A stretch of DNA of 64,000 nucleotides from Parcubacteria group bacterium. GTDB lineage: Bacteria > Patescibacteriota > Microgenomatia > UBA1400 > PJMF01. The stretch is from the NCBI GenBank assembly GCA_943350175.1, contig CALQZX010000001.1:97702-161701 (forward strand), read 5' to 3'. The stretch's first letter is position 1; each line of letters starts with the position of its first letter. The position numbers were made by a program, and so were the translations under genes. Below are positions 50,373 through 64,000 of the stretch, in pieces. Below the pieces are notes generated by a model that worked only from the letters and a program-made list of their open reading frames with translations, did no database searches and was not told the DNA's origin.

Positions 50373-50942
50373 ATGTCAACAACAAAAGCCGGTAATATCA
50401 AAAAAGGTTCTTATATCCTCTATAAGGATTTGCCTCACTACGTCATCAAGACCCAGTTTGTCTCTCCAGGTAAGGGTTCAGCTTTTACCAGAGTTAAGAT
50501 GCGTGACATGCGCAATGGCTCTACTCTAGAATTTAACTTCAAATCTCATGACAACATTGAAGAATTAGACGTTGAAACCAAAGAAATGCAATTTCTCTAT
50601 CTTGATGGTGGCGACGTTGTTTTCATGGATCCACGTACTTACGAACAAATGACCGTTCCTGGTCATATTTTGGACGACAAAGTTCAAATGCTCACTTCTG
50701 AAATCAAAGTTTATTTAACTGTTTATGATGAAAAAGTGATCGGTGTGGTTTTGCCACCAAAAGTCAGAATGGTTGTCGCTGATGCTCAAGATGCTATCTC
50801 TGGTGATCGTCAAACTGCTGGCAAAAAACCAGTGACTATGGAGAGTGGATTGATCGTGCAAGCTCCTCTATTTATTCATACTGGTGATACTCTTTTGATT
50901 GATACAGAAACTGCTGATTACGTTTCTAGAGTTAATGATTAA
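50373..50942 (+). CDS. efp: Elongation factor P
   Basis: 189 aa. The KOW-like N-domain with the SPGKGSAF loop (modifiable Lys) and OB domains II/III. Confidence 0.9.
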   Translation: MSTTKAGNIKKGSYILYKDLPHYVIKTQFVSPGKGSAFTRVKMRDMRNGSTLEFNFKSHDNIEELDVETKEMQFLYLDGGDVVFMDPRTYEQMTVPGHILDDKVQMLTSEIKVYLTVYDEKVIGVVLPPKVRMVVADAQDAISGDRQTAGKKPVTMESGLIVQAPLFIHTGDTLLIDTETADYVSRVND

Positions 50943-51074: not shown

Positions 51075-51147
51075 GGGTCCGTAGCTCAGTCGGTAGAGCA
51101 GAAGCCTTTTAAGCTTTGTGTCGTGGGTTCGAGTCCCACCGGACTCA
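51075..51147 (+). tRNA. tRNA-Lys (anticodon TTT)
   Basis: GGGTCCGTAGCTCAGTCGGTAGAGCA, anticodon arm GAAGC-CTTTTAA-GCTTT, T-arm GTGGGTTCGAGTCCCAC, acceptor CGGACTC-A. Confidence 0.85.
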
Positions 51148-53037
51148 CAAGTTAGCAGCATTTGCCCCGAACTGTTTCAGTTCGTCTTCATGCAAAACCT
51201 TTTTTCTTGCCATGTTGATAAGGATTTGCTGCGGCAGTCGCAGATAAATATCAATTTCGTACGGAACCATTTGTTCTCGATCATTTAGTCCAATTGTCCC
51301 TGCTGTGTGGAGAGTCATTCCAGATATCTGCAGTTTATTCTCAGGCCTATTACTGTAATTGCCGGTTTTTCTTCTTCCTGGAATCTTGTCAGAAGGATCG
51401 GGTCTTCTAGAATGAACAACAATGCCATCGATAATCATGTGAAGAATCTCAAAGATTTTTTCTCTGTCCTCTTGGATATCATTGAGTTTGTCGACATATT
51501 TTTGAGAAAATAGCTCAAGTGAAATCTCATAGGCTTGAAGATTTGCTTTTTGACCAATTTGTAATTCCAACTTTTCTTGTTCCTCGGACAACCTTTTTTG
51601 TTCCAAGTCATAATCTTTCACTTTAGCAAGCATGGTGTCGGTATCAATAATTCCAAACTCATGCTGTTCTTTGACTCTACTAATCATGTTTGGAAGTGCA
51701 TTTAGCAACCTACGGAGTTCATCTCTTCTATCTCTGAGTCTGGTGAGCTCAATTTTATTGGACTCAAGTTCCCTTTGATAGTCAAATACTGACTTTGGAT
51801 CTAGCAAAAGATTTCGCACATACTCAACAACAAATTCCTCAATTTTATCTGCTGGCAAGGGCAAAACATTGCATGGATAGCTTGTCTTTCGAGCATTTCT
51901 GTTGCCACATTTGTAATAATGACTAAACCGACCAGTTGATTTGACTTTTTTTCGATCGCCGACCCATGTAGAAAGATCTCTCATTAGCATGGTTTTTCGA
52001 CAATGACTGCATCTAAGCAATCCGCCAAGTAAATAAACATTTTTACTGTTTTGAGGTAAAGCTATAACCTTGTTGTATTTTGGTTTCTCCTTGAGAGAAT
52101 TTGCTGCCATTTTGAACAAATAATCATCAATGATAGCCTGATGTCTATGTGGAGATAGTTTCCATTTACTTGGTTCAACTCTTTTGCCATTTTCATTTTT
52201 CCCATAGTAATATTTGCCAAGATAGACCTCATCTTGAAGAATCTTTGCGACTACATTCGCTCGCCAAAAATATGCGGTGTTTTTCTTTTGACTTGTTCCT
52301 CGTCTTTTTTTGTAAAAAACAGCGGAGGCCTCTGGTGAAAGAACTTTTTTGGACGCTAAGTGATCAGCGATTTGTTGCTCAGTGTAATTCTGGGTAACAA
52401 ACATGTCGAAGATATTGCGTATAACTAGAGCTTCTTCTTCTAAAATCTCTATTGTTCCATCCAACTTCTTTTTGTAACCAAAAGGAGGGGCACTTCCCAT
52501 CCACACACCTTGCTTTACCGCTTCTCTTCGCCCATCTTGTGTTCTTAGTTTTGTGGTTTCAATTTCAAGCTCAGCAATGACTCCAATAATTCCAAGCATG
52601 GCTTTACCAAAAGGAGTTGATGTATCAATACTCTCATTTGCCGATAAAAACTCAACCTTATTTTTCTCAAGATAGCCAATAATATTGAGCAGTTCCTGCA
52701 ACCTTCTGGCAAAACGATCAATTTTGTACACAACTACTAGATCAAAAGGCTTTTTGTCGCTGTTGGCTAGTTCTTCAGTGAGACGGCGAAATGCTGGACG
52801 CTCAAGCATTGGGGTAGTTCCACTAATGTCGTCCTTGAAGATAAACTTATCATCAACTATATATTTATCTCTGCCATCGGGAAATTTCTTTGATTGAACA
52901 AGACTCCTTATGGCTTGCTCTTGTAAGTCCAGACCATACTTTTCCTTCTGATCCTCAGTAGATACCCTCAAGTAAAGGGCTACTCGCTTCTGCTCATTAT
53001 CTTCATTATTCATTTTTTGCATTCTTCTAATAAACAA
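51145..53037 (-). CDS. Large serine recombinase (site-specific integrase/resolvase family)
   Basis: 630 aa. N-terminal resolvase catalytic domain VALYLRVSTEDQ (Ser nucleophile), recombinase domain, Cys-rich zinc ribbon (CSHCRK...CGNRNARKTSYPC), coiled-coil. The stop codon overlaps the last 3 nt of tRNA-Lys(TTT). Confidence 0.85.
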   Translation of the reverse strand: MFIRRMQKMNNEDNEQKRVALYLRVSTEDQKEKYGLDLQEQAIRSLVQSKKFPDGRDKYIVDDKFIFKDDISGTTPMLERPAFRRLTEELANSDKKPFDLVVVYKIDRFARRLQELLNIIGYLEKNKVEFLSANESIDTSTPFGKAMLGIIGVIAELEIETTKLRTQDGRREAVKQGVWMGSAPPFGYKKKLDGTIEILEEEALVIRNIFDMFVTQNYTEQQIADHLASKKVLSPEASAVFYKKRRGTSQKKNTAYFWRANVVAKILQDEVYLGKYYYGKNENGKRVEPSKWKLSPHRHQAIIDDYLFKMAANSLKEKPKYNKVIALPQNSKNVYLLGGLLRCSHCRKTMLMRDLSTWVGDRKKVKSTGRFSHYYKCGNRNARKTSYPCNVLPLPADKIEEFVVEYVRNLLLDPKSVFDYQRELESNKIELTRLRDRRDELRRLLNALPNMISRVKEQHEFGIIDTDTMLAKVKDYDLEQKRLSEEQEKLELQIGQKANLQAYEISLELFSQKYVDKLNDIQEDREKIFEILHMIIDGIVVHSRRPDPSDKIPGRRKTGNYSNRPENKLQISGMTLHTAGTIGLNDREQMVPYEIDIYLRLPQQILINMARKKVLHEDELKQFGANAANL

Positions 53038-53063
53038 GGATGCAGTACCTAGAACTATATGAA

Positions 53064-53453
53064 CTAGTGCTGGTCGACTTGTTTATAGAGGTGATAAAGG
53101 AGCCTGTCGTTCTCAGTCTTCGCCGATTTGACGAAAACTCCAATTTGCTGATCCTTACCCCTGTAATCTCTATATCTCAAAGGCTTTTCTGTATCAATTT
53201 GCATAGAGACAACCTCAAACTTATCAAAATCAAAGATCTGTTCTTTGCTCTCAAGTTTGGATTGAAGCTCAATTATTTCTTCCGTCTCAAAGTCAGTTTG
53301 ATCTTTCTTAGCAATTACCAGTGAATCAAAGTTTTCGTATGCTGATTGATGAAAGTAAGGATAAATCTCAATCCTCTGTTTGAGAGGATTAGCCATGATC
53401 TTCAGTAGCTTTGGTTTTACCACAATCTTCGGCAGCTTAGTTTTTGCCTTCAT
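53064..53453 (-). CDS. Hypothetical protein
   Basis: 129 aa, Lys-rich N-terminus. No motif. Confidence 0.4.
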   Translation of the reverse strand: MKAKTKLPKIVVKPKLLKIMANPLKQRIEIYPYFHQSAYENFDSLVIAKKDQTDFETEEIIELQSKLESKEQIFDFDKFEVVSMQIDTEKPLRYRDYRGKDQQIGVFVKSAKTENDRLLYHLYKQVDQH

Positions 53454-53599
53454 TGTGCCAATTATAACTTTTCAATCAAACTTCTTCTTGGGCAAACTAG
53501 CACGATAGTGCGAAATTGCATTTGGGTAGTGAAACCTACGGAAGTATAATGGTAAGAATCGCATAAAAAGCGGGAATACAAGAATGTAAGAATAACGCC

Positions 53600-55969
53600 A
53601 TGGACAAGTCAATCTTTTCAGAACGAGATATTTGCACAAAATATATAGCCCCCGCTTTGGTTCGTTCTGGATGGAATGTTGAAACTCAAATTCGTGAAGA
53701 AGTTTTTTTCACTAAAGGAAGAATTATTGTCCAAGATAAAGTGGTAAAGCGAGGTCAGCCTAAGAGAGCCGACTATATTCTCTACCATAAACCAAACCTA
53801 CCACTTGCCATAATTGAGGCTAAAGACAACAATCATTCGGTTGGTGCAGGCATGCAACAAGGCCTTGAATACGCTGAAACTCTCGATATTCCATTTGTTT
53901 TCAGTTCTAACGGAGACGGCTTCATTTTTCATGACAGGACCGGCTTATCAAGTGAGATTGAAAAACAACTGAGTCTTGATGAATTTCCAACTCCTCAAGA
54001 ACTCTATCAGAAATTTCTTCGTTGGAAACACATTACCCCTGAAGAGGAAGCTATCGTCACTACAGACTATCATGTGGATATTCGTGGTAAGGGACCTCGT
54101 TATTACCAGCAAATAGCCATCAACCGCACGATTGAGGCTGTTGCCAACGACCAAGACAGGATTTTATTAGTCATGGCTACCGGCACAGGTAAAACTTACA
54201 CCGCCTTTCAAATCATGTGGCGACTTTGGAAGTCACGATCAAAGAAACGCATTCTTTTCTTAGCTGATCGTAACATTCTCATTGATCAAGCAAAAAACAA
54301 CGACCTCATTCCTTTTGGTGACAAATTGACTAAGATTACCAATCGTCATGTTGATAAATCTTATGAAGTTTACATGTCACTCTATCAAGCTGTCACTGGC
54401 ACTGAGGAGGAAAGCAATATCTACAAACAATTTAGTCCTGACTTCTTTGACCTCATTATTATTGATGAGTGTCACCGAGGTAGTGCCAGAGCTGACTCGG
54501 CTTGGCGAGAAATTCTTGAATACTTTGGCAATGCAACTCAGATCGGCCTGACTGCTACACCAAAGGAAACCAAAGATGTCTCAAATATCGATTATTTTGG
54601 TGAGCCAATCTACACCTACTCACTCAAGCAAGGTATTGATGATGGCTTTTTGGCCCCTTACAAAGTCGTCCGAATTACCATTGACCGAGATGTTGAGGGT
54701 TACAGACCTGAAAATCATAAAGTTGATGTCTACGGGCGTGAAATTCCTGACGAAGTCTACTACGGTCCTGACTTTGATCGAACGCTCATTATTGATGATC
54801 GCACTAAATTAGTGGCCAAAAAAGTAGTTGAATATCTGCGAGAAACAGATCCCTTCTCCAAGACAATCATTTTTTGTATTGATGTGGAACATGCGGAACG
54901 CATGCGGCAGGCTCTTGTCAATGAAGCTCAAGATTTGTATCAGCAGAATCCTCATTATGTGATGAGAATTACTGGTGATGATGAGGCCGGTAAGGCTGAA
55001 TTAGACAACTTTATTGATCCAGAAAGTAAATATCCCGTTATTGTTACCACTTCCAAACTTTTGACTACTGGCGTGGATGTTCAGACCTGTAAAGTAGTCG
55101 TGCTCGATGCCAATATCAACTCAATGACTGAGTTCAAGCAGATTGTTGGTCGAGGCACTCGCCTGAGAGAAGACTTTGGTAAATATTTTTTCACCATTAT
55201 GGATTTCCGCAACGCTACTGATAATTTTGCTGATCCGAACTTTGACGGTATGCCTGAATCAATTTACGAGCCAGTGATGCCCGCTGAAATCGAGGGAAAA
55301 TTGAAAGAGGAAGCATCTATCTCTACCGCAAGTGAAATCCTATATGATCCAACTGAACCAGCAGATCCACTGGTACTCAGGGAGAATGGCCAGCCATATA
55401 CAACCAGTCGTAAATATCAAGTTCGTGATGTTTTAGTCAAAGTTACAGGTGAACAAGTTCAATTTCTTGATGAGCAAGGTAAGTTGATTGCTCAGAATTT
55501 GGAAGAGTTTTGCCAGAGTAATCTCAAGAATGTCTATCCTGAGCCAGAAGATTTTGTTCATGCTTGGAACCAATCAGATAACAAGAAGTTCTTACTATCA
55601 GAACTTGAGGTTCAAGGTATATTTGTTGAAGAACTGCTTGATAGCATAGATAAAAAACTTGATGAGTATGATTTGATTCTCAAGGTGGGATATGGGAAAG
55701 AAGCCAAAACTCGACAACAAAGAAGAACTAAAATCAATCTTTCTCAGATTCTGCCAAACCTTTCACCTTTGCAATCAAATCTAATCGAAGTTCTACTTGG
55801 AATCTACGAGGCTGAAGGTGTTTCTCATATTGAGGATGTAGCGGTTCTAGAAGTCGGAGCTTTTGCCCAATTTGGTCGTCCTTACGAGATTCTCACTCAA
55901 GTGTTTACCAATCGTGAAGAGTATGCTGAGGCGGTTCAAACAATTATCAAAGCACTCTATCAGGAATAA
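53600..55969 (+). CDS. hsdR: Type I restriction enzyme R subunit
   Basis: 789 aa. N-terminal PD-(D/E)xK nuclease (ADYILYH...IIEAKD), SF2 helicase motifs (ATGTGKT, DECHRG, LTATP, QIVGRGTR). Confidence 0.9.
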   Translation: MDKSIFSERDICTKYIAPALVRSGWNVETQIREEVFFTKGRIIVQDKVVKRGQPKRADYILYHKPNLPLAIIEAKDNNHSVGAGMQQGLEYAETLDIPFVFSSNGDGFIFHDRTGLSSEIEKQLSLDEFPTPQELYQKFLRWKHITPEEEAIVTTDYHVDIRGKGPRYYQQIAINRTIEAVANDQDRILLVMATGTGKTYTAFQIMWRLWKSRSKKRILFLADRNILIDQAKNNDLIPFGDKLTKITNRHVDKSYEVYMSLYQAVTGTEEESNIYKQFSPDFFDLIIIDECHRGSARADSAWREILEYFGNATQIGLTATPKETKDVSNIDYFGEPIYTYSLKQGIDDGFLAPYKVVRITIDRDVEGYRPENHKVDVYGREIPDEVYYGPDFDRTLIIDDRTKLVAKKVVEYLRETDPFSKTIIFCIDVEHAERMRQALVNEAQDLYQQNPHYVMRITGDDEAGKAELDNFIDPESKYPVIVTTSKLLTTGVDVQTCKVVVLDANINSMTEFKQIVGRGTRLREDFGKYFFTIMDFRNATDNFADPNFDGMPESIYEPVMPAEIEGKLKEEASISTASEILYDPTEPADPLVLRENGQPYTTSRKYQVRDVLVKVTGEQVQFLDEQGKLIAQNLEEFCQSNLKNVYPEPEDFVHAWNQSDNKKFLLSELEVQGIFVEELLDSIDKKLDEYDLILKVGYGKEAKTRQQRRTKINLSQILPNLSPLQSNLIEVLLGIYEAEGVSHIEDVAVLEVGAFAQFGRPYEILTQVFTNREEYAEAVQTIIKALYQE

Positions 55970-55971
55970 TT

Positions 55972-57396
55972 ATGTCACTCGGAAGCAAAGTCAAAACAAT
56001 TCAAAACATTATGCGTCAGGATACTGGTGTTGATGGTGACGCTCAGCGTATTTCCCAACTTGGTTGGCTAATATTTCTCAAAATCTTTGATGACCGAGAA
56101 AAAGAGCTGAGTACCATGAACCTCGGCTATGTTTCTGCCGTGCCTGAGGGCTTGAAGTGGCGAGATTGGGCGGCAAATCCAGAAGGCATGACTGGTGATG
56201 AGCTACTCAATTTCATCAACAATCAGCTATTCCCAAAACTCAAGAACCTAGAGGTCAGAGAAAATGACAAAAGGACCCTGATTTTACAAGCAGTGTTCTC
56301 TGATTCTTTCAATTACATGAAATCAGGCACTCTGCTGAGACAGATCATCAATGAACTCAATGATATTGATTTCAAGTCATCCAAAGATCGTCACATGTTC
56401 AATGATGTTTATGAACAAATTCTAAAAGACTTGCAAAGTGCTGGCAATGCCGGTGAGTTTTATACACCCAGACCAGTAACTCAATTTATTGTGGAGATGA
56501 TAAATCCACAGCTTGGTGAAAAAGTTTTTGATCCAGCTTGTGGTACTGGTGGATTCTTGACCTCAGTAATTGACCACCTGAGAAAAGATCAGATCAAAAC
56601 TGCTGAAGATGAAAAGATCTTAGCTGAGAGTCTGTATGGCATTGAGAAAAAGCCCCTCCCTCACTTGCTTTGCACAACTAACTTGATTTTACATGGGATT
56701 GATGACACTTCTAACATTATCAGGGGTAATTCACTAACTAGACCACTTAGAGATTACACAGAGTTAGATCGCATGAATGTAGTAGTAACCAACCCACCAT
56801 TTGGTGGTGTTGAGGAAGATGGTATTGAACTCAACTTCCCTAAGAAATTCCAGACTAAAGAAACGGCTGATCTTTTCTTGGTCCTAATTATTCATTTGCT
56901 AAAGAATGGTGGTCGAGCTGGCCTAGTTCTTCCTGACGGAACACTCTTTGGTGAGGGCGTAAAAACCGCCATCAAGGAGAAACTGCTTGAAGAATGTAAT
57001 CTGCACACTATTATCCGTCTGCCTGAAGGCGTTTTCTCACCTTACACAGGTATCAGAACAAATCTCTTGTTTTTTACCAAAGGTGAGCCAACTAGTGAAG
57101 TGTGGTTTTATGAACATAAGTATCCAGAAGGATATAAATCCTATTCAAAAACCAAACCAATGTCACTCAAGGAGTTTGATGCTGAAAGAGAATGGTGGAA
57201 TGATCGCTTGGAGGGTGAAAATAGCTGGAAAGTCAGTATTGATGAGCTGCGGGCAAGAGATTTCAATTTAGATATCAAGAATCCAAGTAAATCAATGCGG
57301 CATAGCTCAAAGAATCTAGAGGACATATTGTCTCAATTTGAGGAGAATCTTGACGAGATTCACAGTATTTTTGACTCATTAGTAAAGGAACTATAG
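55972..57396 (+). CDS. hsdM: Type I restriction-modification system DNA methyltransferase subunit
   Basis: 474 aa. N6-adenine MTase motifs DPACGTGGFL (motif I) and NPPFG (motif IV). Confidence 0.9.
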   Translation: MSLGSKVKTIQNIMRQDTGVDGDAQRISQLGWLIFLKIFDDREKELSTMNLGYVSAVPEGLKWRDWAANPEGMTGDELLNFINNQLFPKLKNLEVRENDKRTLILQAVFSDSFNYMKSGTLLRQIINELNDIDFKSSKDRHMFNDVYEQILKDLQSAGNAGEFYTPRPVTQFIVEMINPQLGEKVFDPACGTGGFLTSVIDHLRKDQIKTAEDEKILAESLYGIEKKPLPHLLCTTNLILHGIDDTSNIIRGNSLTRPLRDYTELDRMNVVVTNPPFGGVEEDGIELNFPKKFQTKETADLFLVLIIHLLKNGGRAGLVLPDGTLFGEGVKTAIKEKLLEECNLHTIIRLPEGVFSPYTGIRTNLLFFTKGEPTSEVWFYEHKYPEGYKSYSKTKPMSLKEFDAEREWWNDRLEGENSWKVSIDELRARDFNLDIKNPSKSMRHSSKNLEDILSQFEENLDEIHSIFDSLVKEL

Positions 57397-57398
57397 CT

Positions 57399-57947
57399 AT
57401 GAAATACAAATTAGGCGACTTCTTCAAACAGAGAAAAGGGTTCATTCAAATTGAAGATACTAAGGAGTATAAACGCTGCCGTTTGCAGGTTAGAGCTCGA
57501 GGTATTGTCTTGAGAGATATTGTCCCCGGATCAAAAATAAAAACAAAAAAGCAGCAGGTTTGTCTAGCTGGTGATTTTGTTGTGGCTGAGATCGATGCAA
57601 AAGTTGGAGGTTTTGGTTTTATCCCAAATGAACTTGATGGTTCTATTGTTAGCAGCCATTACTTTATTTTTGAAATAGATGAAAGCACCGTCTTAGCAGA
57701 ATATTTTGCTCTAATAATAAAATTAGAAGCTTTTCAAAGCAAATTTCGTGCAAGAGGTTCAACAAATTATGCAGCAATCAGGCCACATGACTTTTTGAAC
57801 ATTGATGTGGAAATTCCCAATCCAACAAAACAAACTGAAATAGTAAACAAGTACAAAAAAGCATCCAAACTAGAAGAAAAAATAAAAAACCAACTTGAGC
57901 TTCTTGATGAATTGAAAGAGAAAATTATCATCTATGAACAGGAATAG
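57399..57947 (+). CDS. hsdS: Type I R-M specificity subunit, half-size (single target-recognition domain)
   Basis: 182 aa, about half the usual HsdS length. One TRD followed by a conserved coiled-coil region (EIPNPTKQTEIVNKYKKASKLEEKIKNQLELLDELKEKII). Confidence 0.7.
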   Translation: MKYKLGDFFKQRKGFIQIEDTKEYKRCRLQVRARGIVLRDIVPGSKIKTKKQQVCLAGDFVVAEIDAKVGGFGFIPNELDGSIVSSHYFIFEIDESTVLAEYFALIIKLEAFQSKFRARGSTNYAAIRPHDFLNIDVEIPNPTKQTEIVNKYKKASKLEEKIKNQLELLDELKEKIIIYEQE

Positions 57948-59685
57948 GGTAAAAAAAATATTTATCAGAAATTTCAGAAGTATTGGTCCAGAAGGTATAT
58001 GGATTGATTTGAATCATATTGTTGTTCTGGTTGGTCAAAATAACAGCGGAAAAAGCTCAATTCTTCGTGCCTTGAAGGTTATTACAGAAGGTGAAGGATC
58101 ATCTAAACTCACAATTGAAGACTTCCACCAAAACAAATTGGATAATTGCCCTGAGGTAATTTTGGAAACTTATGTTTTTGATCCAGCACTTCCAGGTACA
58201 GAGTGGATTATCACCGAACCAACAGGTGAACAATTTGTTAGAGAACGATGGCTTTGGGCTCTTCCAGATGTCTCACCAGTGAGAGTTGGTTGGAATCAGT
58301 CAAAAAATGGTTGGGCTTCTGCAGATACTAAGGAAGAAAAGTACCCATGGGGACCAGACAATATCGCTATGGCTCGAAGACCAGAGCCTCACGAAGTAAA
58401 CCCATTTGATGATCCAGAAAAGCAAGCTAATGAGATTGTAAAAATTCTCAATGCCCTGGTAAAAAGCAAGATATCTGCTCTTATATCTGACGACCAACTA
58501 AAACAGGAAAGAAAATACCAACAAATTGTTGATGAATTGAAGGTTCTAAGAAAAAGCGTGGTTGATGATGCCAAAGTTGAAATCGAAGAAATTGAGACGA
58601 AGCTCAATGATCTTGTTTCATCAGTTTTTGCTGGAAATAAAATTGAATTTGATCCACAACCTGAAGAAAAAGTTGAGGATGCTGTTCAAGCTGCACTAAT
58701 CAACATGAATGCTCAGCTCAAAATGGGGCCAGAAGGTGGTTATAAAGGAACGATTGAAAAACAAGGAAGTGGAGCTCGAAGAACATTGCTGTGGATTGCA
58801 TTGAAATTGACAGTCGAATTAGGTGGCGGAAAGAAAAAATCGAGAGGCAAAAAAGCTGAAACGAGTGTTGTTGAAGATCGTCCTCATGTTCTTTTGTTGA
58901 ACGAGCCAGAGATTTGTTTGCATCCAAGTGCGGTTAGAGACGCAAGAGATACTTTATACAAACTACCAGAGACCGGTAATTGGCAAGTTATGGTCACATC
59001 TCATTCGCCAATATTTATTGATATATCAAAAGATAATACAACCATCGTTAGAGTAGAAAAAGATATTACTGGAAAAGTATCAAGTGAAACAGTATTTCGT
59101 CCTGACTCAGCTCAGCTGACAGACGAAGAAAAGCTTCAATTGAAGTTGCTAAATATTTTTGATCCATATTTTGCAGAATTCTTCTTCGCGAAGCACATTA
59201 TTGTTGTAGAGGGTGATACTGAATACTCAGCATTTCGCTACCTACTTCAAGAAAAAGGTAATAGCTCAGTTCATATTCTGAGAGCGAGAGGTAAGGCCCC
59301 AATTGCTACGATTATAAAAATTCTCAATCATTTCAAATCAAGTTATGCTGTTTTGCATGATAGTGACACTCCAAAGTTAGATTCAGGAAAGAAAAACCCA
59401 GCTTGGACCGTAAATCAGTCTATTTTAGATGTGTTCTCTTCAAGAGAGTCTGGAACAAAAGCTCGGCTAGTAGCTAGCGTTCCTGATTTTGAACGAGCAT
59501 GTTTTGGTAGACAAGTGGAAAACGACAAGCCATATGAAACCATTACTGAACTATCTAATAGTCCAACTATGAAAGCTAGAACTGAACAGCTGCTAGACGC
59601 ATTGATTCAATTTGATAAGCCTTTGCCTGTTGGATTTATTGAATGGGGAAATCTTTCTGATCTTGAAAAGCAAGCTACAAAATAA
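57934..59685 (+). CDS. OLD-family nuclease (N-terminal ABC ATPase + C-terminal TOPRIM)
   Basis: 583 aa. Walker A VLVGQNNSGKSS, signature-like QGSGARRTL, Walker B/D-loop HVLLLNEPE, H-loop MVTSHSP. C-terminal TOPRIM with IIVVEGDTEYSAF (Glu) and VLHDSDTPK (DxD). Confidence 0.75.
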   Translation: MNRNRVKKIFIRNFRSIGPEGIWIDLNHIVVLVGQNNSGKSSILRALKVITEGEGSSKLTIEDFHQNKLDNCPEVILETYVFDPALPGTEWIITEPTGEQFVRERWLWALPDVSPVRVGWNQSKNGWASADTKEEKYPWGPDNIAMARRPEPHEVNPFDDPEKQANEIVKILNALVKSKISALISDDQLKQERKYQQIVDELKVLRKSVVDDAKVEIEEIETKLNDLVSSVFAGNKIEFDPQPEEKVEDAVQAALINMNAQLKMGPEGGYKGTIEKQGSGARRTLLWIALKLTVELGGGKKKSRGKKAETSVVEDRPHVLLLNEPEICLHPSAVRDARDTLYKLPETGNWQVMVTSHSPIFIDISKDNTTIVRVEKDITGKVSSETVFRPDSAQLTDEEKLQLKLLNIFDPYFAEFFFAKHIIVVEGDTEYSAFRYLLQEKGNSSVHILRARGKAPIATIIKILNHFKSSYAVLHDSDTPKLDSGKKNPAWTVNQSILDVFSSRESGTKARLVASVPDFERACFGRQVENDKPYETITELSNSPTMKARTEQLLDALIQFDKPLPVGFIEWGNLSDLEKQATK

Positions 59686-59698
59686 TGAAAGGATTCAA

Positions 59699-59911
59699 AT
59701 GCAAAGAATACCAGTAAATTCATCAAATATCGCTGCGATAGGTTACGATCCAGACTCAAGTATTTTAGAGATTGAATTCAATGATGGAAGTATTTACCAA
59801 TATTTTGGGGTTCCTGAGTTGGTCCATCAAGAATTGATGGATGCTGGATCACATGGAAAGTATTTTGCCCAGAATATCAAAAATGATTATGAATATAAAA
59901 AGGTAAACTAA
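59699..59911 (+). CDS. KTSC domain-containing protein
   Basis: From MQRIPVNSSNIAAIGYDPDSSILEIEFNDGSIYQYFGVPELVHQELMDAGSHGKYFAQNIKNDYEY, matching the KTSC consensus. Good RBS (AAAGGA) 8 nt upstream. Confidence 0.6.
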   Translation: MQRIPVNSSNIAAIGYDPDSSILEIEFNDGSIYQYFGVPELVHQELMDAGSHGKYFAQNIKNDYEYKKVN

Positions 59912-59915
59912 TCTT

Positions 59916-60962
59916 ATGCCAAACATCATCTCTCTTGATCAAAAAACCAAAAGAACAAAAGTCAGTCAGTTTGAATTAGACAATGAAATTGTCTTCAATT
60001 ATTTCGATCGGTTATCCTCTGATCAGCGAGATGAGGCCTTTTTTCGGGCAATATACATTGGCGTTTTAGCATTGATGGAAGATAGATTATCTGCATTCTT
60101 GGCTAAAACTCAAAACGAACTGGGCACGCAGCTTGAAAGTCTCAAAATGATCTTTGAGATGAAGAAAGAAATCTTCTTCAAAACTGCTGTCAAAGGTATG
60201 ATTGCTGAAGACGACATTGCCAATTACTTGAATAGCTATTTTCTGGACAAGAAACTTCGTGACAAAGCAGAACTCACAGGAACCGAGGCTGGCGTAATTT
60301 CAGGCAATAAAACAGGTGATATTGTTTGTTCGGTGGATGGTGACGAGAAAAAACGAGTGGCCATTGAAATCAAGTTCGATAAGTCTATGAAGCTTGGTGA
60401 TATTAGTGACAAGGATATTTTTACTAAAAAACAAGATACTGCTTGGAGTCAGCTAATTGAGGCTTCTGCTAACAGAGGCACACAAGTCGCAATTATTGTT
60501 TTCGATAGGTCCTTAGTTGATGGGAGTATCCTCAAATTCACTGATTCCGTTGGTTTTATCTCTGGTGTTGGGTTTGTTGTGGTTGTTGATTCTCAAAAAG
60601 GTGATTATTCAAACTTAGTTGTTGCCTATAACTTGGCTAGAGACATAGTTCTTCATGCCAAGCAACTTGATTTGGATGATAAGGTGCTAACCATGCTTTG
60701 TAAACGAATGATCAGGGATATTGACATGCTGCTTGGTATTCGCCAGCTTGTGGTCCAAAACATCGAAACAAGCCAAGAAATAATGGCAAGAGTTCAAAAA
60801 TCATTACTACTAATGGAATTCAATCAAGAGTACCTAAGCAAATTCCTAAAGGATGGCAAGCTGTCTCAAACTGATTTACTGGCTTTTTACTCAGGTGAAG
60901 ATGTGAAAGCTAAGTACAGTGCGATTCAGCCTGAAATTGATTCCTTGCTCAGCAGTAACTAG
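59916..60962 (+). CDS. Hypothetical protein with predicted PD-(D/E)xK nuclease motif
   Basis: 348 aa. Central GDIVCSVDGDEKKRVAIEIKFDK has the D...(E)xK arrangement of restriction-endonuclease-like folds. Helical N- and C-terminal regions are unknown. Confidence 0.45.
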   Translation: MPNIISLDQKTKRTKVSQFELDNEIVFNYFDRLSSDQRDEAFFRAIYIGVLALMEDRLSAFLAKTQNELGTQLESLKMIFEMKKEIFFKTAVKGMIAEDDIANYLNSYFLDKKLRDKAELTGTEAGVISGNKTGDIVCSVDGDEKKRVAIEIKFDKSMKLGDISDKDIFTKKQDTAWSQLIEASANRGTQVAIIVFDRSLVDGSILKFTDSVGFISGVGFVVVVDSQKGDYSNLVVAYNLARDIVLHAKQLDLDDKVLTMLCKRMIRDIDMLLGIRQLVVQNIETSQEIMARVQKSLLLMEFNQEYLSKFLKDGKLSQTDLLAFYSGEDVKAKYSAIQPEIDSLLSSN

Positions 60963-61213
60963 CGAGCTTCCCAAGAGAAGCCGCATTTTTGACAGACATA
61001 TAGATTCTTAGGCTTTTTGACCCAAAGCACCCTGACAAAAAACAGTGCTGTCATAGCATTTCTACGAAAAGCATCACCTGTTGATTCTTTGACTATGCTG
61101 AGATCCTTACTACCGCATTTTGGGCATGGTGGATTCTTGTAGGTCAATGACCAGTGCAGATACCATTTGAAGAATTTTTTGATTTTTTCCATCATACATT
61201 TGTCCCTTTCCAA
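60959..61213 (-). CDS. Small zinc-ribbon protein
   Basis: 84 aa. CPKCG...(~34 aa)...CQKCG, a four-Cys zinc ribbon. Confidence 0.45.
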   Translation of the reverse strand: MERDKCMMEKIKKFFKWYLHWSLTYKNPPCPKCGSKDLSIVKESTGDAFRRNAMTALFFVRVLWVKKPKNLYVCQKCGFSWEAR

Positions 61214-61310
61214 ACTACTTTGTTGAGTAGTCTATTTAGTTTGAAACACGAGCAATATTATATCAAAACTCTACGAGTTGTGCGTTTACGATTTGTCACA
61301 AATCTTCAGA

Positions 61311-61562
61311 ATGGGATCTATGCTGTCAAAGCAAAGATTTACCATTATCTTAGGAAAGAACATTCGCCGAATTCGAGAAGAAAAAGGCATGACTCAGGAT
61401 GAGCTATCAGCTGAATGTGGTTTTTATCGGACCTATATCAATTTGGTAGAAACAGCTAAAAGGACACCTTCAAGCTTTTCACTATACAGAATTGCTAGAG
61501 GCCTGAAGATTTCTGTATCAGAGCTTTACCCAAAGACAGTGGGCTCTGACTTAGAAGATTAG
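61311..61562 (+). CDS. XRE-family HTH transcriptional regulator
   Basis: From MGSMLSKQRFTIILGKNIRRIREEKGMTQDELSAECGFYRTYINLVETAKRTPS. The ORF-track start at 61278 is upstream of the family N-terminus. Confidence 0.6.
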   Translation: MGSMLSKQRFTIILGKNIRRIREEKGMTQDELSAECGFYRTYINLVETAKRTPSSFSLYRIARGLKISVSELYPKTVGSDLED

Positions 61563-61588
61563 TTTTTTGATAACAATTATCTTTGATT

Positions 61589-61612
61589 GCCGGTATTCAT
61601 ACCGGTTTTTTG
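61589..61612 (+). terminator. Rho-independent terminator after the XRE gene
   Basis: gCCGGTAttcaTACCGGtttttt. Confidence 0.55.
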
Positions 61613-61619
61613 TTTTATT

Positions 61620-61772
61620 GGGTAAAGGGGTGGGTAAAAGTTGGGTAAAAGCTAGGGGAAATTGCCTTTACTGGACTTTTTATGATTGTAATTGCAGGTA
61701 AAGGCTGGGTAAAATTCGACTTTTAGGAATTTATTGTTCGGTGAAAGGTCGGTGAAAGATCGGGAAAAACGG
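61620..61772. repeat. Iteron-like direct-repeat array (GGGTAAAAG-type, 11-bp period) upstream of the Panacea-domain gene
   Basis: GGGTAAAGGGG|TGGGTAAAAGT|TGGGTAAAAGC|TAGGGGAAATT, then GGTAAAGGCTGGGTAAAATT, then GGTGAAAGGTCGGTGAAAGATCGGGAAAAACGG. At least 7 copies of a GGKDAAAR core. Confidence 0.55.
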
Positions 61773-61883
61773 ATATTTCCTATTTTTGAATTTATACAAT
61801 CAGACTCTAGTCACTTTCATGAGATACACTTTGATGTAGTAGAATACATCCACATTAGCCCAATAATGGTCTATATTGTATAT

Positions 61884-62387
61884 ATGACAACTTTATCTGT
61901 AAAAAACACCAGTAAAGTTTTTCAAATTGCCAACTACTTCATCAAGAAGGCTCAAGAGGAAAACAAAGAACTAACAAATAAAAAGTTGCAAAAACTTTTA
62001 TATTATTCTCAAGCTTGGTCGGTTACTTTGAGGGACAAATCAATCTTCGAAGACAATATCGAGGCTTGGGTTCATGGTCCAGCTATTCGCTCTGTTTATC
62101 ATCGATTCTCAGATTTTGGGAGAGAAAACCTTGCTTCAAAAGTTGATGTCACTAGTGCTCATTTCGATGAAATAACTACTGATGACAAAGAGTTGCTAAA
62201 TAAAATCTGGGAAATTTATGGAAAATATACAGCTAATGACTTAGAGGTCATTTCGCACTCCGAATCCCCTTGGCAGGATGCTAGAGAAGGCTTGGAGCCT
62301 TACGAAGCTTCTGCAAATATAATCACAATTGAATCCATGAAACAATATTATGGGCAAAGACAAAAAGAAGCGAAAAGCTCTTCGTAA
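61884..62387 (+). CDS. Panacea (DUF4065, SocA/PanA-like) domain protein, putative antitoxin
   Basis: Start at MTTLSVKNTSKVFQIANYFIKK. KLQKLLYYSQAWSVTL...EAWVHGPAIRSVYHRF matches the DUF4065 consensus closely. Confidence 0.7.
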   Translation: MTTLSVKNTSKVFQIANYFIKKAQEENKELTNKKLQKLLYYSQAWSVTLRDKSIFEDNIEAWVHGPAIRSVYHRFSDFGRENLASKVDVTSAHFDEITTDDKELLNKIWEIYGKYTANDLEVISHSESPWQDAREGLEPYEASANIITIESMKQYYGQRQKEAKSSS

Positions 62388-62862
62388 AGATAAAGCTCAA
62401 GAGTTTCATCAAATTCAAAATACTATTCACGAAGAGAATGTTGAGAGAAGCATTAGGTCTAAATATAAAATTCCTGGCAGTGTCGCTATTCCAACTATTG
62501 AAGAAGATCTATTACAAAAGATTGGCCAGTCTTCATTTTCTCTAATATTTCATTATTACAATCATAATATTTGTGCCCTTACTAAGGTAAACACTACCTC
62601 TCAAGCTGAACAAATTGTAAAAATACTAGACAACCTATCAAAATCCACGCCAAATAATGTGCATGATTTGATTAGGGATAGTATCCACAGAAAAAATGCT
62701 CAGGGAGACTATGCTCGTCTTTTTAGCAGTTTGCCGGAAGATACTGAGATTATTCATGAGTCAAGTTTTTGTGATGAAGGAAGAGTTTTCTTTTTCACCA
62801 TAAATGGCATAAAACAAAATTTTGCCTGCGTAGTCTCAATCAACCCACTGCATCTTTCATAA
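62350..62862 (+). CDS. Hypothetical protein overlapping the Panacea gene 3' end, candidate toxin partner
   Basis: 170 aa. Single Met start with 38-nt overlap onto the upstream gene. Basic N-terminus (MGKDKKKRKALRKDK). No recognisable motif. Confidence 0.4.
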   Translation: MGKDKKKRKALRKDKAQEFHQIQNTIHEENVERSIRSKYKIPGSVAIPTIEEDLLQKIGQSSFSLIFHYYNHNICALTKVNTTSQAEQIVKILDNLSKSTPNNVHDLIRDSIHRKNAQGDYARLFSSLPEDTEIIHESSFCDEGRVFFFTINGIKQNFACVVSINPLHLS

Positions 62863-62946
62863 CAATTTATTTTATTTTCAGACGGTCTATCCCCTCACAT
62901 CTGAGCACGAGCTGTGCTTCTTGATTGACAGATAGTTCTGGTCCGT

Positions 62947-64000
62947 TTACGCTATCCCACCAATTGGGACTGAAGAAGTCTCAAAGTGAGGTTTTAGCCC
63001 TAAATATGGGGCTAATTTAGTTGTTCCAGAAGTTAAATCTGCATAGGTCGGCATACTATCAAAAATGAGTCCAAAGAAGGCTGCTCGTTTGAGTGGATTA
63101 GCTTGATCTATCAGTAATTCCTCTATGTGTTCCAGAAAATATCCAATGTGCTCCATGACATTACTCATATTGACTGATTTCTCGTCACTCTTGCGTCTTA
63201 ATTTTTCCTGTTCCAGTTCCTGAACATCTGTCTCTGCTTTAACTAAATCTGTCTCAAGATATTTAATTGCCACTTCGGATGTCAGATACCTAATTTTGTC
63301 TGCTGTAGCCTGTGCAGTGGCCTTTAGCTCCCGTATTTTGGTATCTATGATAGATTCATCCTCTTGTTTACTTTCAACCCGCTCATGCCATAGAGTTATG
63401 ACATATTTTTTAAGATCGTCGATATATTGCTGATCAAAGTTAAGGTTTCGCACAAATGTCTCAACAGCCTCTTCGAGCTCTTTTGAAGGTACTCTAAAAT
63501 AGTGTCCGCGTTTATTGCAGTGGTAAGCAGGATAATAGGCGCCGCTATGTCCCCGCGAGGCACTGCCAAATAAAGGTTTGCTACAATGAGGGCACATGAT
63601 TACCCGCTTGTATGGGAACTTGGGATTATTAATTAGCTTCTTGGTCATCCATTCAGGTAATTTCTTTTTCCATAACTTTACCTCGCCATCATTCTCAGAA
63701 AGTGTGAGTTTACCTTTATTCGCCTTATTAAACACTTCAATTGAAATAAGTCCGTCAAACTTACCTTTTACCACATTCCCTTCCGTCCACTTTTCACTAT
63801 TTATCCCAGCATAAATCGGGTTTTGAATATATCGCCAAAACTGCTTTATTCTTAGTCCTTTTCCTCCCCGCTCTCCAAGAACCTTAGTTCTATCTTGTGG
63901 GTTTCTGATATATCTCTTACGCGTTTTGTAGCCCATCGCATTTATTTCATCAACGATTTCCTGATCTGACAAAGTGCCACGAGCACGTAGCTCAAACATT
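62947..64000 (-). CDS. Large serine recombinase, C-terminal ~350 aa (N-terminus beyond window end)
   Basis: Recombinase domain, zinc ribbon (CPHCSKPLFGSASRGHSGAYYPAYHCNKRGH) and coiled-coil, the same architecture as the 51145..53037 protein. The reading frame runs to the window edge. Confidence 0.75.
   Translation of the reverse strand, partial: MFELRARGTLSDQEIVDEINAMGYKTRKRYIRNPQDRTKVLGERGGKGLRIKQFWRYIQNPIYAGINSEKWTEGNVVKGKFDGLISIEVFNKANKGKLTLSENDGEVKLWKKKLPEWMTKKLINNPKFPYKRVIMCPHCSKPLFGSASRGHSGAYYPAYHCNKRGHYFRVPSKELEEAVETFVRNLNFDQQYIDDLKKYVITLWHERVESKQEDESIIDTKIRELKATAQATADKIRYLTSEVAIKYLETDLVKAETDVQELEQEKLRRKSDEKSVNMSNVMEHIGYFLEHIEELLIDQANPLKRAAFFGLIFDSMPTYADLTSGTTKLAPYLGLKPHFETSSVPIGGIA

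Follow-up and report, generated by a model that had tools for sequence, protein, structure and literature searches.

A standalone Panacea antitoxin gene and its overlapping partner, a putative RelE/ParE-like toxin, on a Parcubacteria group contig

Contig CALQZX010000001.1 of a Parcubacteria group bacterium carries, in the 64,000-nucleotide (nt) stretch analysed here (hereafter the window, meaning that whole stretch of DNA), a gene for a Panacea (DUF4065) domain protein whose 3' end is overlapped by an open reading frame (ORF) of 170 amino acids (aa). The locus raises the question of whether this ORF is a gene, whether it belongs with the Panacea gene, and, if so, with what kind of protein the Panacea domain is paired. 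The evidence set out below indicates that the two genes probably form a bicistronic PanA-PanT (PanAT) module, in which a RelE/ParE-like, mRNA-cleaving toxin would be held by PanA. Coordinates follow the numbering of the window, and residue numbers are those of the 170-aa partner protein unless another protein is named.

The overlapping gene pair

The upstream gene (panA, 61884..62387, + strand) encodes a standalone Panacea-domain protein, a DUF4065-type antitoxin without an N-terminal accessory domain. The protein was matched to Pfam PF13274 SocA_Panacea over the complete profile (82.6 bits, E 4.9e-23, cut-off 25.7, profile positions 1–113 of 113) and to phrog_1281 (E 5e-48), and its start codon was supported by homologues that begin at the same MTTLS... 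position. The DUF4065/Panacea identity proposed in a first-pass annotation of the window was upheld by the Pfam score; the length of 168 aa given there was corrected to 167 aa. The downstream ORF (panT, 62350..62862, + strand) encodes the 170-aa putative toxin, a predicted diverged member of the PanA-linked group of RelE/ParE-fold predicted mRNA-cleaving ribonucleases (mRNases). Both ORFs start with ATG (at 61884 for panA and 62350 for panT), the panT ATG is without a clear Shine-Dalgarno sequence 5' of it, and by direct reading of the sequence the 3' end of panA and the 5' end of panT overlap out of frame by 38 nt (62350..62387, + strand), a candidate site of translational coupling.

No family match to the 170-aa ORF was found in Pfam, NCBIfam, PHROGs or PADLOC; matches to DUF6043 (14.4 bits), MrpORP (16.5 bits) and phrog_2738 were dismissed, all being far under their cut-offs. 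The N-terminus of the protein is basic, and the coordinates and the family scans agree with the earlier description of an overlapping 170-aa ORF with a basic N-terminus and no recognisable domain. A word-indexed search returned an identical protein in a metagenome-assembled genome (MAG) of Candidatus Woesebacteria and five full-length homologues at 51–55% identity, and an exhaustive profile search returned 135 cluster representatives (clusters at the 50% identity level) at E ≤ 1e-3, mostly 130–175 aa in length. One of the 135, a repetitive protein of 1159 aa (P0134), was rejected as a spurious match, leaving ~134 clusters. Outside the overlap, the nonsynonymous divergence (dN) of the toxin gene was 0.07–0.46 and the synonymous divergence (dS) was saturated, so that dN/dS is at most 0.3. 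The 170-aa ORF is under purifying selection and is a real gene.

Named members of the family came from MAGs of Woesebacteria, Saccharibacteria and Pacebacteria, all of the Candidate Phyla Radiation (CPR), and from a fusion protein of Anoxychlamydiales described below. Pattern scans of genome and metagenome contigs with the family alignments found only two further loci, one from a JGI metagenome (L010) and one from an oral Saccharibacteria MAG (L011). A tblastn search of phage and plasmid collections with the toxin gave no match; the family profile later found a member on plasmid NZ_CP134697.1 of Pontibacter sp. G13, where an ORF right after an annotated SocA/Panacea gene (1654–2139 of locus L018) clearly belongs to the toxin family (48 bits, E 1.4e-14 against the family profile; hhalign probability 96.6%). 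This ORF is absent from the PLSDB gene table. Because it belongs to the family, the family is not restricted to CPR bacteria and also occurs on a Bacteroidota plasmid.

The linkage of the two genes was followed through 11 loci, namely the window, the loci of five close homologues (L001–L006), three loci at 18–21% identity (L007–L009), and the JGI metagenome and oral Saccharibacteria loci named above. The toxin gene lies directly 3' of the Panacea gene and on the same strand in all 11, with an overlap of 23–38 nt in ten and a gap of 2 nt in the remaining one. Pairwise identities of PanA and of the toxin co-vary (Pearson r 0.95, 55 pairs), which suggests that the two proteins are inherited as a unit, and the conserved unit is the two genes, since the remaining neighbours vary by locus (compared among L001, L002, L003, L004, L007 and the window). 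In a protein of 306 aa from a Candidatus Anoxychlamydiales MAG (P0075, NGX32563.1), an N-terminal Panacea domain is joined in frame to a C-terminal toxin domain; whether antitoxin and toxin are naturally fused here or were joined by a frameshift within the overlap of a metagenome contig, the protein is consistent with the linkage. By the in silico measures that Kurata et al. apply to PanATs, the Panacea domain scores above its gathering cut-off, the genes lie no more than 100 nt apart and the conserved neighbourhood comprises at most three genes. The first-pass annotation had put the ORF forward as the cognate partner of the Panacea gene, a proposal to be abandoned if no homologue elsewhere were Panacea-adjacent or if the ORF showed no conservation; with adjacency at 11 of 11 loci and purifying selection, the proposal stands.

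Predicted fold and relatives of the toxin

A model of the toxin was produced with AlphaFold2 (AF2) from an alignment of 100 family members at a mean predicted local distance difference test (pLDDT) score of 91.9; from the six close homologues alone the pLDDT was 48 and the model unusable. Outside the core, the model places a basic helix at residues 5–38 (within the basic N-terminal region of residues 1–38, encoded at 62350..62463, + strand), a flexible linker of lowest confidence at residues 41–50 (mean pLDDT ~59) and a helix at residues 52–61. The core itself (residues ~60–170, 62527..62859, + strand) follows the order beta-alpha-(beta)-alpha-beta-beta-beta, with a strand at residues 63–66, a helix at 83–98, a short strand at 110–113, a helix at 120–124, and strands at 134–139, 145–152 and 157–165. 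In a Foldseek comparison of this model with the PDB, 18 of the top 20 matches were toxins of the RelE/ParE superfamily (probability 0.38–1.0, target-normalised template modelling (TM) score 0.46–0.66). The matches included YoeB (6n90, 7v6w, 7v5y, 8yxv, 6l8e, 7bwf, 2a6q), YafQ (9lew, 4mmg, 4mmj), RelK (3oei) and HP0894 (4lsy, 1z8m), with ParE2, HigB2 and RelE ranked lower; the YoeB and YafQ alignments extended over ~106 columns at a target-normalised TM of 0.58–0.66. At the level of the fold, the core is thus predicted to be of the RelE/ParE superfamily and most like YoeB/YafQ.

The best structural matches (YoeB/Txe, YafQ and RelK; 6n90, 7v6w, 2a6q, 4mmg and 3oei) share the core topology predicted for the window toxin, but show no sequence or profile similarity to it. 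The window toxin extends ~60 residues further at its N-terminus, additional elements separate its first strand from its sheet, and its partner is a Panacea protein, whereas theirs are YefM/Phd or DinJ/RelB.

Seven residues are near-invariant across the 100 members: F67 (94%), C75 (96%), Y121 (96%), D131 (90%), E137 (97%), R145 (98%) and H168 (98%). RNase-type members of the RelE/ParE superfamily use an acidic residue, an arginine that opens the second core strand and a histidine two residues before the C-terminus. The candidate catalytic residues of the window toxin are E137 (codon GAG, 62758..62760), R145 (codon AGA, 62782..62784, at the start of the second core strand) and H168 (codon CAT, 62851..62853, a candidate general acid near the C-terminus), all read on the + strand, which we take to be the counterparts of YoeB E46, R65 and H83. 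The YoeB sequence was checked; by secondary-structure order, R145 and R65 both stand at the start of the equivalent strand, and the histidine lies near the C-terminus in both proteins. Together with Y121 and D131, E137, R145 and H168 would make up a candidate active site.

Of the 100 members, 61 have an N-terminal region of 50 aa or more, with a mean net charge of +6.6 over its first 40 aa, and the rest have a shorter one. The linear motif IPxxVA (residues 41–46, 62470..62487, + strand) falls in the flexible linker and is conserved among the 100 members at P42 (71%), V45 (71%) and A46 (67%), and some 60% of members carry the N-terminal helix and this motif, which are decorations. Since a standalone Panacea protein has been found to neutralise directly, touching the unstructured N-terminal segment of the toxin and a short helix (Ernits et al. 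2023, PMC10440598), the IPxxVA motif is a reasonable candidate for a PanA docking site. A weak profile match between ribosomal protein bL9c and the N-terminal region (E 0.0037) was lost with a deeper profile and was judged compositional.

The relation of the family to described PanTs was traced along two lines. When the 100 members were scanned against NCBIfam, 23 matched the 'MAG6450 family protein' model NF046006, all below its cut-off of 40 bits (best E 1.5e-7). The match of member P0068 spans profile positions 1–99 of 103 and that of WP_004293874.1, a protein of a Parabacteroides plasmid, only 63–102; the window toxin itself gave no match to NF046006. In Mycoplasma (Mycoplasmopsis) agalactiae, MAG6450 adjoins MAG6440, annotated 'putative prophage protein ps3', and Panacea homologues in phage records bear the same 'ps3' prophage name. 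If Panacea proteins were formerly called 'prophage ps3 protein', as is assumed here, MAG6450 stands next to a Panacea-type gene, as the toxin gene does here. The M. agalactiae pair WP_013022262 and WP_013022263 is entered under PanT cluster T1, with a standalone PanA, the antitoxin gene first and a gap of 2 nt, in Dataset S1 (Kurata et al. 2022, PNAS 119:e2102212119, PMC8832971).

For the second line, PanA homologues were taken from annotated plasmids and phages, and the genes downstream of them were tested with the family profile. WP_004293874.1 overlaps its own PanA by 32 nt and scored 16 bits against the family hidden Markov model (HMM); by hhalign it was aligned with the family over 106 columns at ~20% identity (probability 72%, E 3.4e-5), with identical residues at F67, LP128-129, E137, G144-R145 and H168, the GR preceding the second core strand and at its start being kept. 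The Pontibacter ORF likewise aligns an E to E137 and an H to H168. Weaker matches with the same motifs were given by the PanA-downstream proteins of E. coli phage EC.P3 (probability 34%) and of a Legionella plasmid (22%). Dataset S1 lists WP_004293874.1, which with WP_004293873.1 makes up a Bacteroides/Parabacteroides pair, as cluster T1 with a 32-nt overlap; a further T1 example is the C. cadaveris pair WP_074844973 and WP_074844970 (Kurata et al. 2022, PMC8832971). The T1 representative, from Clostridium cadaveris, is toxic in E. coli and is given the predicted mode of action 'mRNase' (Kurata et al. 2022 SI Table S1, PMC8832971).

Like the T1 systems, the window pair has a standalone (noNTD) PanA as its first gene and the genes overlap (by 32 nt in the Bacteroides pair and by 23–38 nt in 10 of the 11 loci here). 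Unlike WP_004293874.1, the window toxin has the basic N-terminal helix and IPxxVA, and is without the ~95-aa C-terminal extension of that protein. No score reached the 40 bits or more against NF046006 that would place the toxin in T1/MAG6450 at the sequence level, and the relation to T1 is one at the profile level only.

Among the other PanT clusters, T14 and T28 have HHpred matches to HigB-2/YoeB/ParE, and the commonest recognisable PanT domain is MqsR-like (Kurata et al. 2022, PMC8832971). Pairs of an HTH-type (helix-turn-helix) PanA with T14 are already listed for Saccharibacteria, and no Woesebacteria pair occurs, in the portion of Dataset S1 covered as text (Kurata et al. 2022, PMC8832971). 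The pairing of a Panacea antitoxin with a RelE-fold toxin of the mRNase type is thus already established, and the window toxin is best regarded as a diverged branch of it: going by its predicted model, a new diverged member of the catalogued Panacea-linked group of RelE/ParE-fold predicted mRNases and no new kind of toxin. The suggestion in the first-pass annotation that the ORF could be an undescribed toxin gave way at this point, in view of the RelE/ParE-like core, the T1 relation (hhalign probability 72%) and the sub-threshold MAG6450 matches of 23 of the 100 members.

Proposed mechanism and its alternatives

In the proposed mechanism, PanA would bind the toxin and neutralise it by direct protein-protein contact (type II), in the manner of validated standalone PanAs. 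The near-invariant residues D131, E137, R145, H168 and Y121 would form an RNase active site, and the toxin, once freed, would cleave mRNA, probably on the ribosome, and arrest translation. Synthesis of the two proteins may be coupled through the 38-nt overlap. The basic N-terminal helix and IPxxVA, which are lineage-specific additions, may serve in RNA or ribosome binding or in PanA docking, and the island context of the module suggests a role in island maintenance, in abortive-infection defence, or in both.

Several points weigh against this account. For this pair, toxicity, neutralisation and RNase activity are predictions, and in E. coli PanA failed to neutralise its partner in the one T1 pair found toxic there (Kurata et al. 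2022, PMC8832971). The Foldseek E-values were 0.02–0.6, none of them ≤ 0.001, at root-mean-square deviations of 4.5–6 Å. None of the 100 members matched a Pfam family of the RelE/ParE type (YoeB_toxin PF06769, ParE_toxin PF05016, YafQ, HigB, Gp49 and others) at E ≤ 0.01, and when E. coli YoeB, YafQ and a low-diversity YoeB alignment of 123 sequences were each compared with the family by hhalign, there was no signal (probability <1%). Because the profile and Pfam comparisons were null, the superfamily assignment rests on one predicted model, and because the YoeB/YafQ profile comparisons were without signal, the RelE/ParE similarity is one of fold level only. The mapping of E137, R145 and H168 onto YoeB E46, R65 and H83 follows the order of secondary-structure elements and not a superposition.

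Among the other explanations, a low probability was given to the possibility that the N-terminal helix and IPxxVA are a new functional module on the RelE scaffold, either a ribosome- or RNA-targeting arm that changes specificity or a sensing element through which a phage trigger acting on Panacea releases the toxin. Neither the basic N-terminal helix nor IPxxVA is present in classical RelE/YoeB toxins or in the T1 protein used for comparison. If the module reading were true, the family would not be a routine variant of a toxin-antitoxin (TA) system; it would be an abortive-infection system in its own right, with an enrichment in CPR/Patescibacteria.

It is unlikely that the module is the same PanA-PanT pair with a ParE-like toxin that poisons DNA gyrase or another non-RNA target. 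The RelE and ParE folds are indistinguishable at the present resolution, and ParE2 (5cw7, 5czf) is among the Foldseek matches; the ParE matches, however, have probabilities of 0.13–0.25 and low ranks, against 0.99–1.0 for YoeB. The near-invariant acidic/Arg/His set of the toxin ends two residues before the C-terminus; RNase-type members, YoeB among them, typically have such a set and, to our knowledge, ParE toxins are without it. The CDD hits for PanTs include ParE, but the related T1 toxin is labelled 'mRNase' (Kurata et al. 2022, PMC8832971).

Equally improbable is a downstream protein that does not arrest growth, being a non-toxic nucleic-acid-binding or regulatory partner whose RelE scaffold has degenerated, or an effector that acts on phage only. 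Eight of the PanTs tested were not toxic in E. coli, three of them labelled 'mRNase' (Kurata et al. 2022, PMC8832971), a possible sensor role has been proposed for Panacea (Ernits et al. 2023, PMC10440598), and the pair lies in a defence-island setting with a restriction-modification (R-M) system and an OLD nuclease. Against this stand the toxicity of a related T1 member (Kurata et al. 2022, PMC8832971) and the strict overlapping linkage, the co-variation and the near-invariant polar residues of the pair, which are what is expected of an active enzyme checked by a cognate inhibitor.

The chances are slim that the module is of the type VI, SocAB-like kind, with PanA as a protease adaptor handing the toxin to ClpXP for degradation. 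SocB of Caulobacter targets the DNA sliding clamp and SocA is a ClpXP adaptor, and neither activity is expected of the window pair. The two systems are alike in having a Panacea domain in the antitoxin, SocA is the founding Panacea protein, and the NCBIfam model SocA_antitoxin was aligned with PanA residues 14–164 (68.8 bits, E 4.6e-19); the score is nevertheless far under the equivalog cut-off of 190 bits. The window toxin is unrelated to SocB, which forms a separate cluster, T10 (Kurata et al. 2022, PMC8832971). Validated PanATs form complexes in type II fashion (Kurata et al. 2022, PMC8832971), and the standalone Panacea protein tested neutralised its toxin directly (Ernits et al. 2023, PMC10440598).

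Since it matches no library family, overlaps the upstream gene and lacks a clear Shine-Dalgarno sequence, the 170-aa ORF might be taken to have arisen by chance, or the overlap to have been called in error, without expression; this explanation is already refuted by full-length homologues in ~134 clusters, purifying selection, a confident fold and synteny at 11 of 11 loci.

The surrounding island and the wider family

The PanA-PanT pair, read here as a probable mRNase-type module, lies within a defence and mobile-element island that is associated with tRNA-Lys and occupies the right part of the window. The left 51 kb of the window holds housekeeping genes and eleven tRNA genes, with EF-P at 50373..50942 and, just 5' of it, a class II aminoacyl-tRNA synthetase-like gene. 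The island starts at a tRNA-Lys gene (51075–51148), the 3' end of which overlaps the stop codon of a gene for a large serine recombinase (51145..53037, − strand), and the G+C content of the island (51075–64000) is the same as that of the rest of the window. These are followed by a type I R-M system (hsdR 53600..55969, hsdM 55972..57396 and a short hsdS 57399..57947) and by a gene for an OLD-family ATPase/TOPRIM nuclease (57934..59685; PADLOC Old, E 6e-77) that overlaps hsdS by 14 nt. A KTSC-domain gene (59696..59911) is tightly spaced after the OLD nuclease and is followed by an ORF of 348 aa (59916..60962) for which Pfam, NCBIfam, PADLOC and PHROGs gave no family. These three genes may constitute a defence-system operon, one component of which is uncharacterised. 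An ORF of 84 aa with a Zn-ribbon and a double CxxC (60959..61213, − strand) is divergent from an XRE/HTH_3 gene (61311..61562) whose best PADLOC match is the R-M 'Control_protein' (E 2.5e-14). Between the XRE gene and the pair lie an intrinsic-terminator-like hairpin (61589–61616) and a repeat array (61618–61768), and 3' of the pair is a second gene for a large serine recombinase (62947 to beyond 63999, − strand), which runs past the end of the window, so that only its 3' part lies within it.

The repeat array consists of ~nine GG(G/T)(T/G)AAA units (GGGTAAA type) in three clusters (61618–61661, 61697–61714 and 61738–61768) at an 11-nt (helical) phasing. Eight exact copies of TGGGTAAA occur in the window against ~2 expected, four of the eight within the array, which could represent iterons or regulator-binding sites. 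The first-pass annotation had placed the pair behind an XRE regulator and a repeat array. Both do lie 5' of it; at the loci compared there was no sign of a link of either to the conserved module. The array was not found in the upstream DNA of seven other panA loci, the flanks of which are short or partial, and the XRE gene did not recur upstream in seven loci, again in short or partial DNA, nor among the genes called at nine loci. The upstream DNA of L010 was compared only in a promoter alignment of 138 nt, and the flanks of L011 stood outside the comparison for the XRE gene and the array. Given the terminator-like hairpin, which sets the XRE gene apart, and the non-recurrence elsewhere, with the array absent at seven other loci, both were rejected as parts of the module and are treated as its neighbours.

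A sigma-70-like promoter match directly 5' of panA (61849..61877, + strand; TCCACA-17-TATATT, 9/12) is weak and of low confidence, matches of such quality being only ~2x as frequent here as in shuffled sequence. Upstream of panA at L002–L005 and L010, a shared direct repeat, TTGATAT(N3-5)TGATA(G/T)A(A/C)T, lies ~50–70 nt 5' of the gene and is a candidate operator or promoter. The window (61812–61836) is without the TTGATAT repeat and has two copies of CACTTT(C/G)ATG 15 nt apart.

Large serine recombinase genes also stand just 5' of panA in L001 and L002. The recombinases of the window, L001 and L002 are only 22–23% identical, which rules out an adjacent serine recombinase that travels with the pair; the pair is for this reason regarded as associated with mobile elements in general and not with one element. 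Directly 5' of the PanAT pair, L003 carries a HepT/MNT (nucleotidyltransferase) TA pair (1002–1633), and a DUF5655 gene is found directly 3' of the PanAT pair in L002 and L003. The closest phage-borne PanA homologue, gp097 of Cylindrospermopsis raciborskii virus RM-2018a (L021, 1207–2172), is followed by an annotated CRISPR array and no toxin gene, and the gp097 region is flanked by DNA methyltransferase genes.

The practical gains of the analysis are modest, with no new mechanism and no new toxin fold. A predicted fold and a candidate active site are given to a family of ~134 clusters that has no Pfam model and is annotated 'hypothetical', and the family is tied to the widespread PanT T1/MAG6450 group. 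With that tie, the label 'PanA-associated RelE/ParE-like toxin' could be transferred to its members. PanAT systems are thereby extended to further uncultivated CPR lineages (Woesebacteria and Pacebacteria), in which toxin-antitoxin biology is little explored.

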